DNA from: a bacterium BMS3Bbin08
Lineage (GTDB): Bacteria > Nitrospirota > Thermodesulfovibrionia > UBA6902 > BMS3Bbin08
Assembly: GCA_002897775.1 (NCBI GenBank)
Contig: BDTR01000042.1
Location: 61,280 to 125,279 of the forward strand
DNA: 64,000 nucleotides
Direction: 5' to 3'
Part shown: positions 5,089 through 53,826 of the stretch, one piece after another
How the letters are laid out: each line of letters begins with the position of its first letter
How positions within the stretch are numbered: the first letter of the stretch is position 1
Position numbers and translations under genes: made by a program
Notes under the pieces: generated by a model
What the model saw: only the letters and a program-made list of their open reading frames with translations
What the model was told of the DNA's origin: nothing
Databases searched by the model: none

Positions 5089-6384
5089 ATGCTCGCGGAA
5101 ATCTTAGAAACAACACCAACAACAAGAAAACTGAAGATAAATATCCCCGCTTCCGTTATCGAAGAGGAGATCGCCGGCGCCTACGGCAGGCTCAGGGCAA
5201 GCGCGAAAATACCCGGCTTCAGGACCGGCAAAGTACCGCAGGCCATCCTTGAGAAGAAATTCAGCAAAGATATCGAAAGCCAGGTCATAGAAAAGATATT
5301 GCCCGAGTTTTACTCAAAGGCCGTCAGGGAAGCGCGGATAATGCCGGTCTCCTACCCTGATATAGACGGCGGGACCGAACTGGTAAAGGACCGGCCCGGC
5401 TCAAACCGTTACAAGCCGCTCTCCTTCACCGTCACCGTTGAAGTAAAGCCCGAAATAAAAGGCCTCAACTACGAGGGCATCGCGCTTAAAGAGCAGCCGT
5501 TCTCTGTAAAAGACGAGGAAGTGGATACGGCCCTTAAGAGCCTGCGGCAAAGCAGGGCTGTGCTGAAAGTTTTTAAAGGGCCTTTAAAAAAAGGGGACAT
5601 GGCTGTCATAGACTGCGATGCCTTTATAAACGGCAAAGAGGTCACAGATCTGCGATCAAAGGATCATCCTTTTATCCTTGGTTCTCAGGCGATGCCCAAA
5701 GAGTTCAGCGATAACCTGGCAGGCAAAAACAAAGAAGACAGCCTTGAGTTCACGATAAATTTCGAGGCCGGCCTGCCGAACAGTACCATTGCCGGGAAAG
5801 AGGTCCTTTTCAAGGTCTCCGTAAAAGAGATAAAAGAGAGCGTGCTCCCTGACCTGGACGACGGGTTCGCGAAGAGTTTCAACTCTGCCGGCATGGAGGA
5901 GCTCAAAAAGAACATAACCGGGAACATAGGCAAACAGAAAAAGGACAAAATAAACAGCGAATACAAAAAAGAGATCGTGGAACACCTGGTCAGTACCCAT
6001 GAAATTGAAGCGCCCGGCTCCATGGTACAGATGGAACTTAGCTCCCTGATGGACGAGGCAAAGCAGAACGCCATGAGCACGGGTAAGGCCGTTAGGACCG
6101 ATGAAGAGCTGAGGAAGGAACTTGAACCGGCGGCGCATAAGAACGTAAAAGTAATGCTGATACTGGATGCTGTCGGCAAAAAAGAAAAGATCGAGGTAAG
6201 CGAAGATGACGTCAGGCAGGCAGTGGAAGAGGTAGCAACCCGGCACAATATAAAACCCGAGGAAGTGAAAAAGCTGTATATAGCCAAAGAGGGTTCTCTG
6301 GAAGGGTTGAAACACAGGCTGTATTCAGGCAAAGTCCTGGAATTCCTGATGTCTAAAGCATCTATTGAAACAACCACAGATTAA
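5089..6384 (+). CDS. tig: Trigger factor (ribosome-associated PPIase chaperone)
   Basis: 431 aa; ribosome-binding N-domain (GFRTGKVP), FKBP-like middle domain; conserved tig-clpP-clpX order. Confidence 0.9.
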   Translation: MLAEILETTPTTRKLKINIPASVIEEEIAGAYGRLRASAKIPGFRTGKVPQAILEKKFSKDIESQVIEKILPEFYSKAVREARIMPVSYPDIDGGTELVKDRPGSNRYKPLSFTVTVEVKPEIKGLNYEGIALKEQPFSVKDEEVDTALKSLRQSRAVLKVFKGPLKKGDMAVIDCDAFINGKEVTDLRSKDHPFILGSQAMPKEFSDNLAGKNKEDSLEFTINFEAGLPNSTIAGKEVLFKVSVKEIKESVLPDLDDGFAKSFNSAGMEELKKNITGNIGKQKKDKINSEYKKEIVEHLVSTHEIEAPGSMVQMELSSLMDEAKQNAMSTGKAVRTDEELRKELEPAAHKNVKVMLILDAVGKKEKIEVSEDDVRQAVEEVATRHNIKPEEVKKLYIAKEGSLEGLKHRLYSGKVLEFLMSKASIETTTD

Positions 6385-6431
6385 CGCGGATAATAAACTA
6401 CAGATTATCGCTGATATTCCTTCCTGCCGTT

Positions 6432-6466
6432 TTACCCGCCTGGTAGTGTGGCGGGCAGGCAGGTCT
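6432..6466 (+). repeat. Family W hairpin (TTACCCGCC-N9-GGCGGGCAGGC) after tig
   Basis: Related copies at 15963-16010 (inverted, after truB) and 24240-24275 (after SemiSWEET). Confidence 0.6.
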
Positions 6467-6525
6467 GTGCAAATCGCGCGGCTAATCTGTGATCATCTGT
6501 GTTTATTAGCAGAAAGGAGTATACA

Positions 6526-7113
6526 TTGAACTTAATACCGATGGTAATAGAACAGACCGGGCGTACAGAACGGGCATATGACATTTATTCCCGTCTCCTT
6601 AAGGACAGGATCGTATTTATCGGGTCCCCTATCGACGATATCGTGGCGAACACGGTCATCGCGCAGCTGCTATTTCTTCAGACAGACGACCCTGACAAGG
6701 ACATACACGTATATATAAACACGCCCGGGGGTACTGTCTCTTCAGGTCTGGCCATTTACGATACCCTGCAGTATGTAAAGCCGGATATCGCCACATACTG
6801 CATTGGACAGGCGACCAGCATGGGGGCCCTGCTTCTCGCGTCAGGCACAAAGGGCAAGCGGTACGCGCTGCCGCACTCCCGGATAATGATACACCAGCCT
6901 CTGGGCGGTTTTTCCGGCCAGGCAGCCGACGTTGAGATACACGCTAAAGAGATCATGAGAATGAAAGAGACATTAAACAGGATACTTGCCAGGCACACGA
7001 ACCAGCCGTTAGACAAGATCAACGTGGACACTGACAGGGACTTCTTTATGTCGAGCGAGGAGGCAAAGGAATACGGCCTTGTCGATGAAGTGATCGTAAC
7101 AATAAAAAAATAA
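6526..7113 (+). CDS. clpP: ATP-dependent Clp protease proteolytic subunit ClpP
   Basis: ClpP catalytic Ser/His/Asp context ([19 protein letters not shown]); probable TTG start at 6526, 6 nt after GAAAGGAG RBS (ORF track M at 6499 is probably upstream of the true start). Confidence 0.9.
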
Positions 7114-7125
7114 CCGGGGAAGAGA

Positions 7126-8379
7126 ATGAAAGAAAAAATAAAGAAAACATACGGCACATCGCTCAGATGTTCCTTCTGCAGCAGGGGACAGGATGAGGTC
7201 AAGAAACTGATAGCTGGACCTGCTGTCTACATATGCGATGAGTGTATCGGGCTTTGTAACGAGATCATGGCAGAGGAGCTTGATACCGCGTTTGATATAT
7301 CGGTCTCAACCGCGATTCCCGCGCCCAAAGAAATAAAGGCGTATCTCGACGACTATGTAATAGGCCAGGAACGGGCAAAAAAGACCATCTCCGTGGCTGT
7401 GCATAATCACTACAAGAGGATAAACAATCCGCATCTGTCTGATGTAGAGCTCCAGAAAAGCAATATACTGCTTATCGGTCCGACCGGCACCGGCAAAACG
7501 CTTCTTGCCCAGACGCTCGCGAAGCTCCTGGATGTTCCATTTACCATCGCCGACGCGACAACCCTGACCGAGGCCGGCTATGTGGGTGAAGACGTTGAAA
7601 ACATAATACTTAAACTGCTTCAGGCAGCGGACCATGATATTGAAAAGGCTCAGCGGGGCATCATCTACATTGACGAGGTGGACAAGATAAGCCGCAAGAC
7701 CGAAAACCCTTCCATAACAAGAGATGTTTCAGGGGAAGGCGTCCAGCAGGCGCTCCTGAAGATCATTGAGGGCACGGTTGCCAATATACCCCCTCAGGGA
7801 GGGAGAAAGCATCCCCAGCAGGAATCTATCCAGGTCAATACAACGAACATACTGTTCATATGCGGGGGTACGTTCATAGGCCTTGAGGATATAATCGAAA
7901 AAAGAACAGGCAGGAAAACCGTTGGTTTCGGTTCGGAGCTGAAAAGCCGGAAGCAGAAGAAGATAGGAGAGACCCTGGCAATAGTCGAGCCTCAGGACCT
8001 GATAAAAAGCGGCCTGATCCCCGAGTTCGTTGGAAGGCTTCCTATTGTGGCGATACTTGACGAGCTGGACGCTCCGGCGCTTGTAAGGATCCTTCAGGAA
8101 CCCAGGAACTCTCTTTTAAAACAATATGAAAAGCTGTTTTCTTTTGATAATGTAAAGCTCTCATTCACCGACGACGCGGTCTCTGCCGTGGCCCGGGAAG
8201 CCATGAGGCGCAAGACCGGCGCCAGGGGCCTGAGGGCCATTCTTGAGGACGTGATGCTTGACGTCATGTATGAGATACCTTCACGGAGCGGGATAAAAGA
8301 GTGCGTTATAAACGGGAGGGTCATCGACAAAAAAGAAAAACCTGTTCTGGTCTACGAAAAACACGTTGAATCCGCATAA
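7126..8379 (+). CDS. clpX: ATP-dependent Clp protease ATP-binding subunit ClpX
   Basis: N-terminal C4 zinc finger ([11 protein letters not shown]...CDEC), Walker A GPTGTGKT, sensor motifs. Confidence 0.95.
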
Positions 8380-21629: not shown

Positions 21630-21654
21630 GTACAGCTGATCATTATTTATTAAA

Positions 21655-21707
21655 TAAAAAAAGCCCTTGGTTCGATATGCTCTTCATAAACCAAGGGCTT
21701 TTTTTAT
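21655..21707. terminator. Bidirectional rho-independent terminator shared by convergent porB and rhodanese genes
   Basis: A-run, perfect 12-bp stem AAGCCCTTGGTT/AACCAAGGGCTT, T-run. Confidence 0.55.
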
Positions 21708-21713
21708 ATTTAT

Positions 21714-22178
21714 CTAATAGCTATATCCCTTGGGATACACAGGATATCCCTCATATATCCAGCGCTTGAGACCGCCAAGCAGGGCATAGACACGGCTGTA
21801 TCCATGTTCGTACATTACAAGCGCCGCACGGACGCTTTTGTGCTCATTCGGTCACGTTCAATAAAAGATAATATCTTTGTCGCGGGGAAATTCCTTGATG
21901 CGGGCCTCTATCTCATTGACAGGAATCGAGCGAGCGCCGATTATGCGCCTGGCATTATACTCTGCAAAGGAGCGGACATCCACGATCATGATATCCTCAC
22001 CCTTGTACAGAAGGTCCATGACCTGTTTTGGGGTGATCCTGGGGACTTCAGGTTCTTTTTCCAGGACAGAAGGAGGAACGGGTTTCTGCGCTTCCTGTGC
22101 CAAGGCCAGGTTCCAGGCAGGAACCAGCAGGCACGTAACCAGGATAATAAGCTTTTTTAAGAAATTCATATCTCTCAT
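21714..22178 (-). CDS. Periplasmic single-domain rhodanese (sulfurtransferase) with two in-frame TGA codons in the catalytic loop: candidate selenoprotein or recently inactivated gene
   Basis: Signal peptide, then rhodanese N-half (IMIVDVRSFAEY...IPVNEI...DKDIIFY). ORF stops at TGA at 21858-21860, but the same frame continues Y-TGA-T-TGA-PNEHKSVRAALVMYEHGYSRVYALLGGLKRWIYEGYPV with clear rhodanese C-terminal homology to a TAG at 21714. Confidence 0.55.
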
Positions 22179-22238
22179 AGCGCTCTAAAATTATAACAGA
22201 CTGTGATGTGAAGTCAAGCAGGCCTGCCCTTGCCCTTA

Positions 22239-22268: not shown

Positions 22269-22402
22269 GTATTGCTTAGTTCGTTATTTGTATTCCGGGC
22301 AGCCCAGCCATCACGAAAGGTCTGGCAGGTGGCTGTTCAGGATTTGTTCTTTGAAATCATTTTATATTCCCGGGTAGCTCAGCTGGCAGAGCAGGTGGCT
22401 GT

Positions 22403-23035
22403 GCGAGCTCCGACAAGTCGGAGCGAGCAGTGAATTTGCAATGTTTCGTCTTTAACAGTGGCGAGCAACGAAAAGCAGGTGACCCTTGGCTAAGCGTGAA
22501 ACTCGACGCTACGCAGACCGCAGACAGTACTTAATTAAGGCGGTTCATAAGCGCCGCAAGAAAATCCGCCAGATGGCCGTTGATTATAAAGGCGGATGTT
22601 GTGAAGTCTGCGGTTATGATCGTTGTATCGAGGCATTAGACTTTCACCACAATAATTCTTCCGGGAAAGACTTTAGCATCTCAGATAAAGGCTATACGAG
22701 AAGCTGGGCTAAAGTTCAGGAAGAATTAGATAAGTGTAAGTTGCTTTGTGCCAATTGTCACCGCGAAATTCATGCTCAAAGTGCAGCTTTCCCGAGAAAT
22801 CGGGATTGAAAAATCGGGTGAATTCAGGGAAGCCTAAATGGTGAGTTAATCGCACCGTATGGTAATCCTGAGCGAAGTCCGCTGAAGGGTACAAAGTAAG
22901 CGGAAACGTGCAGAGACTAAGGAGTGAGGAACCCAACCAATAAACTCCTATTAGCGCCCGATCCCTAAACCCCGCACAAAAGCGGGATATGGGAATGAGA
23001 TAGTCCAGGCCTTGTGGAAACATAAGGAGCTCTTG
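22403..23035 (+). mobile_element. Group I intron (ORF-containing) in tRNA-Asn
   Basis: 5' exon ends in U and intron ends in G (omega G). Conserved catalytic-core elements: R-like GTGCAGAGACTAAGG (about 22908-22922) and S-like GAGATAGTCC (about 23000-23010) forming P7. HNH ORF sits in a 5' peripheral loop. Confidence 0.7.
22486..22809 (+). CDS. HNH homing endonuclease encoded within the group I intron
   Basis: 107 aa; CCEVCGY...LDFHHNN...CKLLCANCHREIH = HNH (beta-beta-alpha metal) motif with flanking Cys zinc ligands. Confidence 0.8.
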   Translation: MAKRETRRYADRRQYLIKAVHKRRKKIRQMAVDYKGGCCEVCGYDRCIEALDFHHNNSSGKDFSISDKGYTRSWAKVQEELDKCKLLCANCHREIHAQSAAFPRNRD

Positions 23036-23085
23036 TAACCACCCTGTCGGGGGTTCGAATCCCTCCCCGGGAGCCAATAAAAAAA

Positions 23086-23117: not shown

Positions 23118-23220
23118 CTATGTTTCAAGGGGGATTTGGATGAGAACCCGAGTGAGTTTACCCTGAGGCGTGAAACAACGAAGGGAATCCCTCTTTGAGA
23201 ATCCGATTAATTTTGCAATC

Positions 23221-23442
23221 ATGTGGTATTTATATATTATTCAAAAAAAAGATCGGTATTACACAGGGATCACTACAAACATTGAAAACCGCTTGCGCCA
23301 GCACGGAAACCAGCCGTTACTCTATATTGAAAACCATGAAAACAAATTCCAGGCAGCAAAGCGGGAAAGAGAGATCAAGGGCTGGTCAAAGCTAAAAAAA
23401 GAAGAGCTGATTGCAAAATTTAACAAGGTGAGTTTACCCTGA
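23221..23442 (+). CDS. Small GIY-YIG nuclease-domain protein (UPF0213/YhbQ-like)
   Basis: WYLYIIQKKDRYYTGITTNIENRLRQH...YIE...EIKGWSKLKKEELI = GIY-YIG core; ORF track starts at 23170 but M at 23221 fits the family. Confidence 0.65.
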   Translation: MWYLYIIQKKDRYYTGITTNIENRLRQHGNQPLLYIENHENKFQAAKREREIKGWSKLKKEELIAKFNKVSLP

Positions 23443-38854: not shown

Positions 38855-38940
38855 TTTATCAGGATCAAGCCTGCAATACAAATGTATTTCATTCTGAAGG
38901 CACTTCAGTGATCATCTGTGTTATTTTAGGGGGGGGGATT

Positions 38941-39168
38941 ATGGCGACCTTATCATTCAAGATCGGCCATGTTTATTGTTATGACTGCGTAAAAGCAGTG
39001 GGAAAGTTTGTGGGTAAAATGAAGGGTGTACTCTCGGTCGAGGTAAAAAATAATGACAGCGCTGTTATTGAGTATGATCCCTCCAGGATCGAGTTCAGCG
39101 AGGAAAAGTTCAGGCGGATCGTCATGGACTGCATAGACAGGCTCGGATTTAGAATAAAAAAAACTTGA
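38941..39168 (+). CDS. Small HMA-like (ferredoxin-fold, CxxC) protein
   Basis: SFKIGHVYCYDCVKAV...VEVKNNDSAVIEYD resembles heavy-metal-associated domain topology. Confidence 0.35.
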   Translation: MATLSFKIGHVYCYDCVKAVGKFVGKMKGVLSVEVKNNDSAVIEYDPSRIEFSEEKFRRIVMDCIDRLGFRIKKT

Positions 39169-39292
39169 AGGACTAACTTTGTTTTTCAGCCTTTTTCAAC
39201 GATCAGCCCATACAGCTATAAATATAAATAAATTGACAAAGACTTTTTCAAACAAATATAATTTATAAAATTTGAGGAGGAGGATATGAATT

Positions 39293-39622
39293 ATGTCTGA
39301 AGGTGTTACAAATGTTACTCAGGACTCGTGGGACGCGGAAGTTCTTCAGTCACCTGACCTGATACTGGTCGATTTTTGGGCGGCGTGGTGCGGTCCCTGT
39401 AAAATGGTTGCTCCAATGGTGGAAGAATTGGCCAGGGAATATGAAGGTAAAGCCAGGTTTGTCAAACTCAATACTGACGAGAACCCCGATCTTGCGAGTC
39501 GTTATAAGATCCGGGGGATACCCACTCTGATGTTTTTCAAAAAAGGCGAGATAGTGGAGCAGATAGTCGGCGTAGTTCCCAAGGCACAGCTCAAGGCGAA
39601 GATCGACTCGCTCCTTGGATAA
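39293..39622 (+). CDS. trxA: Thioredoxin
   Basis: WAAWCGPCK active site. Confidence 0.9.
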   Translation: MSEGVTNVTQDSWDAEVLQSPDLILVDFWAAWCGPCKMVAPMVEELAREYEGKARFVKLNTDENPDLASRYKIRGIPTLMFFKKGEIVEQIVGVVPKAQLKAKIDSLLG

Positions 39623-40558
39623 ATGCTTTTTGATACTGTAATTATCGGCGGAGGTCCCGCGGGGCTCACGGCAGGACTTTATACTTCAAGGGCCAGACTA
39701 AAAACCCTGCTTATAGAAAGAGGCCTTCCAGGCGGTCAGGTCATGACCACTGAGCTGGTGGAGAACTACCCGGGGTTTGAGGAAGGGATCATGGGCCCGG
39801 AACTTTCCGCCAAAATGGAAAAACAGGCCAGAAAGTTCGGCCTTGAGATAGTTCAGGATTCTGTCCGCGAGATCTCCCTTGATGGAAAAACAAAAAAAAT
39901 AATTCTGGAGGAAGGCCGGCAGTACGAGGCAAAGAGCGTTATCCTGTGTACCGGCGCCCATCCAAGGCTTCTGGGTGTTAAAGGAGAAGCAGAACTCAGG
40001 GGAAAAGGTGTTTCATACTGCGCGACCTGTGACGGCGCCTTTTTCAAGGGGCAGAAAATCGCGGTCGTGGGCGGTGGGAATTCAGCGGTGGAAGAGGCTC
40101 TGTTTTTAACGAAGTTCGCCAAGGAAGTTCACGTGATCCACAGGAGAGACCAGCTAAGGGCTGACAGGATAGTCCAGGAACGCGCCTTTGCCAATGAAAG
40201 AATAAAGTTTATCTGGGACTCTGTCGTAGAGGAGATAAGAGGGGATGAAGAGGTCACCTCTTTACTTATAAAGAACAGGAAAACACAGCAGGAATCAGTG
40301 CTTGATGTTCAGGGCATTTTTATCTATGTTGGTTATATCCCGAACACCGAGTTTCTCAGCGGCTTTATTACCCTTGACGAGGAAGGCTATATAGTTACCG
40401 ACCATAATATGGCCACTTCCGTACCGGGAGTTTTTGCGGCAGGCGACGTAAGGGCCAACTCTGTGAAACAGATCTCGGTTGCCGTTGGAAGCGGGACGAC
40501 AGCCGCCATATCAGCGGCAAAATATATTGAGGAAAACTTCCAAGAGAGATTAAAATAA
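39623..40558 (+). CDS. trxB: Thioredoxin reductase (NADPH)
   Basis: FAD GxGxxG (IIGGGPAGL), redox-active CATCDG, NADPH GGGNSA. Confidence 0.9.
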   Translation: MLFDTVIIGGGPAGLTAGLYTSRARLKTLLIERGLPGGQVMTTELVENYPGFEEGIMGPELSAKMEKQARKFGLEIVQDSVREISLDGKTKKIILEEGRQYEAKSVILCTGAHPRLLGVKGEAELRGKGVSYCATCDGAFFKGQKIAVVGGGNSAVEEALFLTKFAKEVHVIHRRDQLRADRIVQERAFANERIKFIWDSVVEEIRGDEEVTSLLIKNRKTQQESVLDVQGIFIYVGYIPNTEFLSGFITLDEEGYIVTDHNMATSVPGVFAAGDVRANSVKQISVAVGSGTTAAISAAKYIEENFQERLK

Positions 40559-52126: not shown

Positions 52127-52852
52127 TTATGGATTAAAAGTCTTAATATGCGCATGGCAACTTGATTTTGTGCACGTTCTTCCCCATTGATGGCTGTGCC
52201 CGCCACCACCGCCTCCACCGCCGCCTCCACCGCCGCCACCACCGCCGCCTCCGCCTCCGCCGCCGGAGGTGTTGCGATGCCTCGCGGTTTGTGTATGGCA
52301 GGTGTCACAGACACTGTCGTAGTACCCGTTGCCATCCTGGTCACGATCGCAGAAAGAATGCAGGGTTGGATCCCCAACATCCGTGCCGCGGTTTTCAAAA
52401 ACCACATGTCGGATCCCGCTGTTAGGGGTGTTAATTTTTGTATAGCCGGAGGCGTCCAGGTCTGAATCCCCCACCATCTTGATATTAGTGCCGGTTCCAT
52501 TACCATTACAGTTGCCCGGACACCAGTTGTCAAAGGCCAAAACTTCCCCTTCATGCGGGTTGTGGCATTCTCTGCACGTTATCTGCCACACACCATAATC
52601 AGGAGAACTGTCATTCGGGTCGTTCTCATGGACTTCCACCTGGGTAGCGTTTCCTCCGGGCCCGTGACAGCTCATGCACAGGGCTTCTATAGATGCGGGT
52701 GATCCCGTTAACAGAAAATAAGACGGGCTGCCGCCATGAATGTCATGGCAAAAATCACATTCATGAACCCGGGCATTACCAATACCCGGCAGGAAAAAAA
52801 CAATGCCCGATAAAACAAATGTAAAAACTAATGACCGGAGAAGATACCTCAT
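52127..52852 (-). CDS. Secreted tetraheme c-type cytochrome with 23-residue poly-glycine tract
   Basis: Signal peptide; four CxxCH (CDFCH, CMSCH, CRECH, CDTCH); G23 linker encoded by mixed GGN codons; 4-bp overlap with upstream NHL gene. Confidence 0.65.
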   Translation of the reverse strand: MRYLLRSLVFTFVLSGIVFFLPGIGNARVHECDFCHDIHGGSPSYFLLTGSPASIEALCMSCHGPGGNATQVEVHENDPNDSSPDYGVWQITCRECHNPHEGEVLAFDNWCPGNCNGNGTGTNIKMVGDSDLDASGYTKINTPNSGIRHVVFENRGTDVGDPTLHSFCDRDQDGNGYYDSVCDTCHTQTARHRNTSGGGGGGGGGGGGGGGGGGGGGGHSHQWGRTCTKSSCHAHIKTFNP

Positions 52853-53826
52853 GGTATCACACCTCCCCCTGGATACGCCTCTATCCGTCTGGGACGGTTA
52901 TTCGTGACAAAAACATCTTCTGTCGCCGGGTCAATTATAATATCCAGGGGCAAAAACAGCTGTCCGGGGTTAGAACCAAAGCTGCCAATTGTCTTTACGC
53001 CGGCAAATGTCCCGCGGTTGAACACAAGGATCTTACCCAAAACGGATTCCACCATAAAGATGTAGTTATCACTTACTGCAATACCCTGCGGACTTGCGAA
53101 TTCATAGCCACTGGCCACATCTTCTGCTGAAAACCCGCCGAGGTAGTTGCCCGCATAATTGTAAATCTTTAATCGCGCGGGGATTTCAGCAGAGTCAGAC
53201 GGGTTACCGAAATCCGTTACAAATATCTCCTGGGCATTTTCATCTACTGCTATGCCTCTCGGGCTAACCAGAAGTTCAGGATCTGCCCCTGTCCCGCCTA
53301 TTGAGTACAGAAATTGTCCATCTGTTCTGAAGACCTTTATAAGCCCGTCATTGCTATCCACAACAAATACCATATTCTGTGTTTTATCAATTGCGATATC
53401 ATTCGGCTTTTTTACATTCCCTTTGGTGCCGCCCAGATCGTATAGCCACCAGCCCTGCAAGGTGTAAGCTTCAACTGTTCCGGTTGATTCATTGCCGACA
53501 AAAACAATGTCAAAAAAAAGACTGTCCAAAAAAGCGACTGCCAGCGGTCTCCCCGCGACGGGAAAAGAACTGATCATCTTAAGATCTGAGCTGTCAATTA
53601 TGTATATTCTCTTCCGGAAATAATCAGAAACAAGGAGGTTGCCGTCTGAGGTAAAATCAATCCTGACAGGAGAGCGTATGGATATTGGTTTATCACCAAT
53701 ACCGCCTTCCCCGGTCATGCTGTCGTCGCTTCGGCATGATTGAAGGCCTGCGGCCAGGAATAAAACAAGAGGAACAAACAAAACCAGAAGCCAGGCATGA
53801 AAGTTCCCTTTAAATGTCCGCTTCAT
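52849..53826 (-). CDS. Secreted NHL-repeat beta-propeller protein
   Basis: Signal peptide; repeated (S/P)xGIAVD...IFV(V/T)D NHL blades x about 6. Confidence 0.7.
   Translation of the reverse strand: MKRTFKGNFHAWLLVLFVPLVLFLAAGLQSCRSDDSMTGEGGIGDKPISIRSPVRIDFTSDGNLLVSDYFRKRIYIIDSSDLKMISSFPVAGRPLAVAFLDSLFFDIVFVGNESTGTVEAYTLQGWWLYDLGGTKGNVKKPNDIAIDKTQNMVFVVDSNDGLIKVFRTDGQFLYSIGGTGADPELLVSPRGIAVDENAQEIFVTDFGNPSDSAEIPARLKIYNYAGNYLGGFSAEDVASGYEFASPQGIAVSDNYIFMVESVLGKILVFNRGTFAGVKTIGSFGSNPGQLFLPLDIIIDPATEDVFVTNNRPRRIEAYPGGGVIP

Follow-up and report, generated by a model that had tools for sequence, protein, structure and literature searches.

A rhodanese gene on the minus strand of a 64,000-nucleotide (nt) stretch of DNA from bacterium BMS3Bbin08 (contig BDTR01000042.1 of GCA_002897775.1; this whole stretch is referred to as the window) carries two in-frame TGA codons, one codon apart, in the part that encodes the catalytic loop. 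We consider it highly likely that the gene truly encodes a selenoprotein, with translation running through both UGAs. It is very probably intact and monocistronic, and encodes a predicted exported, single-domain rhodanese with the active-site loop U-T-U-P-N-E, where U denotes selenocysteine (Sec). A first-pass annotation had left the choice between a Sec enzyme and a freshly inactivated gene; the former is favored by the recurrence of both TGAs in eight assemblies and in homologs down to 32% identity, by Cys counterparts, by the ratio of nonsynonymous to synonymous substitution (dN/dS) downstream of the TGAs, and by a covarying hairpin of the Sec insertion sequence (SECIS) type. The organism is presumably an anaerobe of a deep-sea sulfide deposit, as the assembly name BMS3 suggests.

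Anatomy of the gene

The minus-strand frame reads MRDMNFLKK...DIIFY-TGA-ACG-TGA-PNEHKSVRAALVMYEHGYSRVYALLGGLKRWIYEGYPVYPKGYSY-TAG, in TGA-bounded pieces of 108, 1 and 45 codons. The last piece (PNEHKS...) stays in frame up to TAG 21716-21714, and with Cys written for the stops, the Pfam family Rhodanese (PF00581) matches across the site at 60.2 bits (cutoff 22.2), covering profile positions 1-100 of 102. Frame, homology, and a hairpin at about 21662-21699 that is followed by a T run thus bear out the first-pass annotation where it had described a rhodanese open reading frame (ORF) with two in-frame TGAs, 45 further codons of rhodanese C-terminus, and a terminator just 3' of the TAG.

21714-22178, minus strand: coding sequence of the predicted rhodanese selenoprotein; start at ATG 22178 or ATG 22169, stop TAG 21716-21714
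21858-21860, minus strand: first in-frame TGA (predicted Sec 1); canonical catalytic Cys position, residue 1 of the active-site loop
21852-21854, minus strand: second in-frame TGA (predicted Sec 2); loop residue 3, the place of Sec in known CxU rhodanese selenoproteins (Cys and Sec separated by one residue)
21756-22034, minus strand: rhodanese homology domain PF00581, residues 49-141 of 154, spanning both TGAs
22098-22169, minus strand: predicted signal peptide of the Sec (secretory) type, MNFLKKLIILVTCLLVPAWNLALA, then QEAQ; read by eye
22190-22217, minus strand: putative sigma-70-type promoter-like site, TTGACT-16 nt-TATAAT with a TG extension; from a consensus scan, 11 of 12 matches
about 21654-21700, minus strand: intrinsic terminator hairpin AGCCCUUGG...CCAAGGGCU with a U run, 3' of the TAG stop

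The product would have 154 residues if translated from ATG 22178, or 151 from ATG 22169, the start used in GenBank. Its leader combines a KK n-region with a hydrophobic core and the cleavage motif A-L-A, and the homologs likewise begin with signal-like or lipoprotein-like leaders, including a lipobox-like LPGC in the homolog L026. The promoter-like site sits immediately 5' of the ORF, and the terminator is common to the rhodanese gene and the convergent por operon (head-to-head), so that the predicted signals flank the full-length ORF and not the truncated one. GenBank carries a wrong annotation for this gene: the entry (P0001), a 'MoeZ-like' fragment of 103 residues, ends at the first TGA and is labelled 'molybdopterin biosynthesis-like protein MoeZ'.

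Both TGAs are reproducible and conserved

Because the window comes from a metagenome-assembled genome (MAG), the stops might be a sequencing or assembly artefact, a concern that the first-pass annotation had also raised. The window sequence is, however, identical to contig BDTC01000063.1 of GCA_002897755.1 (bacterium BMS3Abin10), and TGA-ACG-TGA is found unchanged in eight contigs of NCBI, ENA and Logan, each assembled separately, which represent different runs and pipelines. Single-nucleotide polymorphisms near the gene, few in number, distinguish these contigs and mark them as independent population samples, which makes an artefact exceedingly improbable.

Some uncultured bacteria reassign TGA, and the two codons could in principle be sense codons for Trp or Gly. 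Among the 45 confident ORFs of the window, defined under translation table 11, TAA serves as stop in 26, TGA in 11 and TAG in 8, and none, the longest having 1111 codons, contains an internal TGA. With 11 of 45 genes ending in TGA, this codon is a normal stop in the organism and the rhodanese TGAs are special. As both of them also align with Cys rather than with Trp or Gly, the chance that the genetic code has been reassigned here appears close to nil.

Word-indexed and exhaustive profile searches recovered truncated homologs that end at the same ...[IV][IVL][FL]Y residue. Every distinct gene with readable DNA, nine of nine including that of the window, has TGA-NNN-TGA at this place, and eight of them continue into a full in-frame rhodanese C-terminus, the contig of the ninth (L025) stopping just past the second TGA. 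The eight homologs are as follows, with identity to the window protein and the loop (asterisks denote TGA):

L011, GCA_006243145.1: 84-86% identity, FY*T*PNEN
L009 (the same as L012 and L013), Nitrospirales MAG: 52-60% identity, FY*T*PNEN
L010, ERZ1742235: 51% identity, FY*T*PDD
L025, ERZ23491517: 49% identity, FY-TGA-ACG-TGA, then contig end
L027, GCA_006243215.1: 59% identity, FY*T*PAEN
L026, Nitrospirae bacterium: about 40% identity, FY*N*PAEH
L028, Ca. Mariimomonas ferrooxydans: 40% identity, LY*T*SREN
L029, JGI 3300039233: 32% identity, FY*T*PAEF

The homologs that keep TGA-NNN-TGA (UxU genes) thus range from 32 to 86% identity, and its presence in nine distinct genes takes the feature far beyond chance.

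These data also bear on the idea of a freshly inactivated pseudogene, in which two nonsense mutations would have wrecked the catalytic loop of a C-x-C rhodanese. Such an origin would agree with gene callers and GenBank ending the gene at the first TGA, and with the fact that we did not see Sec machinery in the window. It would not account for dN/dS values of 0.15-0.25 over the 26 codons past the hairpin (Nei-Gojobori, window against L009, L027, L028 and L026), which indicate that the region beyond the TGAs is translated and under purifying selection, nor for the proportion of synonymous differences (pS) of 0.34-0.86 in the 60 codons 5' of the TGAs (window against orthologs), which excludes a single recently spread dead allele. 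Both TGAs and the frame are retained across the whole identity range, with a complete C-terminus in eight of the nine genes, dozens of clusters at 50% identity stop at exactly the same residue, and the promoter-like site and terminator enclose the full ORF. Taken together, these observations exclude a pseudogene for practical purposes, and we regard it as very improbable.

Cysteine and CxU counterparts

The full-length homologs P0005-P0009 read FYC[TV]CP[NSA]E, and both UGAs align with the two Cys of these C-x-C proteins and of P0206. Many further homologs end two residues later, after YC[TAS]; on the DNA of L014, L019, L020, L021, L022 and L024, we find C-x-TGA followed by an in-frame C-terminus, and the second UGA aligns with the Sec of these CxU genes. 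L024 has tandem rhodanese genes (554-904 and 1398-1766), both reading YCS-TGA-P[NS]EH with an in-frame C-terminus, that is, two predicted CxU Sec-rhodaneses on one short contig.

Among the best 150 cluster representatives (50% identity) in the exhaustive profile search, about 42 new ones end at the first position and about 53 after C-x, while the word-indexed search adds clusters at 90% identity, one of them named Anaerolineae. The pooled matches listed comprise 62 sequences ending at the first position and 80 ending after C-x; these are counts of protein ends, the first-position stop being seen as a TGA pair in the nine genes with DNA. In a rough neighbor-joining tree of 62-residue cores, 37 of the 62 stop-at-position-1 sequences fall into one clade and the others are scattered among CxU sequences, the core segment being too short to tell a single origin from repeated switching between Cys and Sec. 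Homologs with a name come from Nitrospirae or Nitrospirales, Ca. Mariimomonas and Anaerolineae.

Placement in the active-site loop

To place the two positions in the fold, we used an AlphaFold2 model of the C-T-C-P-N-E homolog P0006 (predicted local distance difference test score, pLDDT, 90.3) and carried the placement over to the window protein by alignment. In the model, a strand at residues 109-112 (VVFY) is followed by the loop C113-E118 (C-T-C-P-N-E) and a helix at 119-130, and Foldseek matches it to the single-domain rhodaneses 3nhv, 3gk5, 3ilm and 6mxv. By this model, both TGA positions are in the standard six-residue rhodanese active-site loop, the first being the canonical catalytic residue. 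The first-pass annotation had regarded the loop spacing as atypical, a reservation that falls away because the P0006 model fills the usual six-residue loop between beta-strand and helix. HMMER alignments of solved rhodaneses span the site, yet place the catalytic Cys inconsistently around the two positions, and the register was therefore taken from the secondary structure of the model.

A covarying SECIS-type hairpin downstream of both UGAs

Shortly after the second UGA, the transcript can form the following hairpin:

21819-21837, minus strand: SECIS-type hairpin AAGCGUC-CGUGC-GGCGCUU, 7-bp stem, 5-nt loop

A SECIS-like hairpin had been proposed in the first-pass annotation, and its place holds; its 9-nt loop does not, since the conserved pairing AAGCGUC/GGCGCUU encloses the 5-nt loop CGUGC. 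The apical loop is 21 nt from the second UGA and 27 nt from the first, and the minimum free energy (MFE) in the window is -7.7 to -8.8 kcal/mol. The published model of the bacterial SECIS has a loop of 3-9 nt, a stem of 4-16 bp, a UGA-to-loop distance of 16-37 nt, an MFE of at most -7.5 kcal/mol, and a G at loop position 1 or 2, as a rule with G or U after it (PMC13188914). With its G at loop position 2 followed by U, the hairpin lies within all of these limits for both UGAs.

We aligned 66 nt of seven UxU and six CxU genes without gaps, beginning one codon ahead of the first position (alignment A4). RNAalifold predicted a single hairpin on this alignment, pairing columns 27-33 with 39-45. Counted over the 13 genes, this structure has 90.1% of its cells paired; shifting the 3' arm by 1-3 columns lowers the figure to 26-50%. 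Compensatory double changes occur in five of the seven pairs, and the observed covariation was reached by none of 500 shuffles. Examples of the stem variants are AGCGUC/GGCGCU, GCCGCC/GGCGGC, AGUGCC/GGCACA and GAGCGCAA/UUGCGCUC, and the loop letters G35 and U36 are invariant. Over the 12 hairpin codons, pS is 0.12-0.35, compared with 0.50-0.85 further on (L009, L027, L028, L029), with a smaller drop for L026 (0.47 vs 0.68); depressed synonymous change of this kind fits an overlapping RNA constraint. Folding the whole region as single sequences was uninformative, with z-scores from 0.17 to -1.77 and MFE structures that differ per ortholog, and a long stem that L010 could form instead, with the second UGA inside it, was dropped because the other orthologs do not share it.

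RNAalifold predicted no second conserved structure on A4 besides the hairpin. Since the spacing also fits, we infer that a single hairpin serves both UGAs. An alternative would be that only one UGA, most plausibly the second, is efficiently read as Sec, while the other is read as Cys or Trp by near-cognate decoding or mostly terminates translation; in that case, the functional protein would be a mixture of forms, or its synthesis would be controlled by how much selenium is available. The distance from the second UGA to the hairpin is indeed that of the single-Sec CxU genes, with the first UGA 6 nt further away, and our literature search gave no experimental case of two UGAs that depend on one bacterial SECIS. 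On the other hand, the first UGA is kept as UGA, never TGY or TGG, in the nine genes with DNA, which would be difficult to account for without selection for UGA as such, and another 60 or so truncated clusters stop at the same residue, as judged from protein ends, which do not reveal the type of stop codon. The 27-nt spacing of the first UGA also agrees with natural bacterial SECIS elements, whose range is 16-37 nt. We therefore think it unlikely that only one of the two UGAs is efficiently decoded as Sec.

Points against decoding of both UGAs as Sec

Several observations weigh against the interpretation of this gene as an exported protein with two Sec residues. First, the covariation comes mostly from the CxU relatives, as the stem is nearly invariant among the UxU genes, and the hairpins of L028 and L029 carry one mismatch each. 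Moreover, the stem coincides with codons for a conserved peptide, S-x-R-A-A-L, and constraints on protein and RNA can be separated only in part; this segment is not conserved in the all-Cys homologs, which suggests that RNA rather than protein constrains it. When we searched the literature for one bacterial SECIS serving closely spaced UGAs (here 6 nt apart), we obtained nothing specific. Second, selA, selB, selD, tRNA-Sec and other selenoprotein genes were not found in the 64-kb window (ARAGORN, Rfam, and Pfam on 30 ORFs). Third, gene neighborhoods of the UxU genes are not conserved, and context gives little functional support and allows no operon-based functional call. Lastly, export and substrate are predicted from sequence alone.

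As to the selenium machinery, selA, selB, selD and tRNA-Sec were likewise not found in the fetched homolog loci, and a scan for TGA-joined ORF pairs in the window was too noisy to be used. The selC and selB genes are reported to overlap in Nitrospirae (PMC13188914), which indicates, if indirectly, that Sec is used in the phylum to which the named homologs belong.

In the Nitrospirae MAG with L026, an HMA (heavy-metal-associated) protein, the UxU rhodanese and a DsbD_2 membrane protein are encoded in this order (5687-7679), with the rhodanese gene two genes upstream of the DsbD_2 gene, and P0093 is an HMA-rhodanese fusion that ends at IVFY. These two cases hint that the family may be linked to soft-metal handling or to a DsbD-type reductant relay.

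Elsewhere in the window, a small HMA-like ORF (CYDC motif, by eye), a thioredoxin gene and a thioredoxin reductase gene stand in a row at 38908-40558 on the plus strand; the thioredoxin beside trxB is the Cys form (WCGPC) and not a selenoprotein. At 52127-53826 on the minus strand, the gene for a multiheme protein with doubled CXXCH adjoins that of an NHL/beta-propeller protein, a pair that fits an anaerobic respiratory lifestyle.

Proposed mechanism

In the mechanism that we propose, the hairpin 15 nt 3' of the second UGA would recruit SelB and Sec-tRNA(Sec), by which both UGAs would be recoded as Sec. Being within the permitted UGA-to-loop distance for both codons, it could stay folded as the ribosome moves from one to the other. 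The signal peptide would then export the protein. Numbered from ATG 22169, Sec-104 would occupy the canonical nucleophile position and accept sulfane sulfur or a related chalcogen, giving a selenenyl-sulfide or perselenide adduct, and Sec-106, two residues on in the loop, could be its partner in forming or resolving a diselenide. The two would constitute a vicinal redox pair of very low potential for extracytoplasmic handling of sulfur, polysulfide or metalloids. This chemistry is extrapolated from rhodanese enzymology.

A wider and more tentative proposal, which we hold to be possible though it is rather less likely to be true than false, concerns the whole family. It states that UxU rhodaneses are a large exported family, mostly unannotated, whose roughly 60 clusters stop at the first UGA and whose centre lies in Nitrospirota-like anaerobes; that one SECIS would serve two Sec in each; and that a vicinal diselenide/selenol pair in the canonical catalytic loop would give them a role unlike ordinary sulfur transfer, such as periplasmic handling of polysulfide, selenium or soft metals. 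A DsbD-like membrane supply of reductant may feed the pair, as hinted at by the HMA-rhodanese-DsbD_2 locus L026, the fusion P0093, and the fusion in the selenoprotein TsoB (see below).

A split tRNA-Asn gene beside the rhodanese gene

Next to the rhodanese gene, at 22368-23076 on the plus strand, is a tRNA-Asn(GUU) gene with a group I intron of 633 nt inserted behind the CUGU of its anticodon loop. ARAGORN found no tRNA at all in the raw 64-kb window, but identified a perfect 76-nt tRNA-Asn with encoded CCA once the exons (22368-22402 and 23036-23076) had been joined, and Rfam Intron_gpI matches at 22761-23027 with 79.5 bits. To our knowledge, tRNA-Asn is not among the classical bacterial cases of group I introns, which are those in the genes for tRNA-Leu, -fMet, -Ile and -Arg.

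The 5' part of the intron holds an ORF of 107 residues (22486-22809, plus strand) that resembles HNH endonucleases (CxxC...CxxC...H) and is likely a homing endonuclease; the gene tables of L001 and L002 assign Pfam HNH to the same gene. Directly upstream of the real 5' exon lies a degenerate, partial copy of the 5' half of this tRNA (22291-22345, plus strand; ttccgggcagcccagcc...ggcaggtggctgttcagg), and directly downstream of the tRNA a small ORF with a GIY-YIG domain (23170-23442, plus strand). Both may be a footprint of mobile-intron activity.

Comparison with known systems

The closest precedent is the UxU form of a rhodanese-related sulfurtransferase in deltaproteobacterial symbionts of Olavius algarvensis (Zhang & Gladyshev 2007, NAR 35:4952, PMC1976440), which in our full-text search for UXU together with selenocysteine was the sole UxU Sec motif in a rhodanese. 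Its motif, with two Sec in a rhodanese-family protein, is the one found here, and the likeness is one of motif description; the hosts differ, being Deltaproteobacteria there and Nitrospirae/Nitrospirales, Ca. Mariimomonas and Anaerolineae here. The text of that article, a single sentence on this form, contains no description of a joint SECIS, an export signal, the placement in the loop or the size of the family. We found no experimental study of a UxU rhodanese in the literature searched.

Two reviews, from 2022 and 2026, list CxU rhodaneses with one Sec only, as 'COG0607 form 2, CxU' (PMC9312934) and as 'form 3, NF041203, CxU, 1 Sec' (PMC13188914). The best NCBIfam match of the window protein is NF041203 itself (rhodanese_LYCAU, 'rhodanese-related (seleno)protein'), at 86.9 bits and thus below the cutoff of 115. 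The CxU form shares the domain, the Sec at the third loop position and a homologous SECIS hairpin in the same register, but begins its loop with Cys and has only one Sec, where the window gene has a TGA and two predicted Sec. The other UxU genes score 71-94 bits and the CxU genes 45-103 bits, all below the cutoff, so this model covers only part of the superfamily.

The all-Cys C-x-C-P-N-E rhodaneses P0005-P0009 are 31-36% identical to the window protein over the whole alignment and 33-43% in local BLASTP matches. They have membrane-anchored or signal-bearing N-termini and read C-T-C-P-N-E in place of U-T-U-P-N-E, with sulfur rather than selenium at both positions. TsoB (NF045694), a rhodanese/DsbD fusion-like selenoprotein, likewise combines an exported rhodanese domain with two Sec. 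However, its Sec spacing is UxxxxU and not U-x-U, the window protein lacks the DsbD fusion, and the match to the TsoB model is 31.5 bits for the window and 45-47 bits for L028 and L029, against a cutoff of 805. GlpE, PspE, Wolinella Sud (1qxn) and the structures 3nhv, 3gk5, 3ilm and 6mxv have the same fold and a six-residue loop that starts at the catalytic residue, but in such classical single-domain rhodaneses the one catalytic Cys is the only chalcogen residue of the loop, and Sec is absent. PspE and Sud are periplasmic.

The truncation seen at this locus affects dozens of public protein clusters, and both standard pipelines and the current NCBIfam model miss most of the two-Sec family, which is larger than the literature suggests. 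With two UGAs one codon apart and one covarying hairpin after them, the gene is a small natural system in which to ask what range of UGA-to-SECIS spacing bacterial SelB tolerates and whether the same element can act twice within two translocation steps. A Sec-x-Sec pair in the loop of a predicted exported rhodanese would also be a catalytic arrangement to probe. In summary, this kind of protein has been known since 2007, and the locus is an unrecognised, mis-annotated addition to the UxU rhodaneses; what is new here is the joint covarying SECIS, the position of both Sec in the canonical loop, the predicted export signal, the Nitrospirota-centred spread, and the size of the family.

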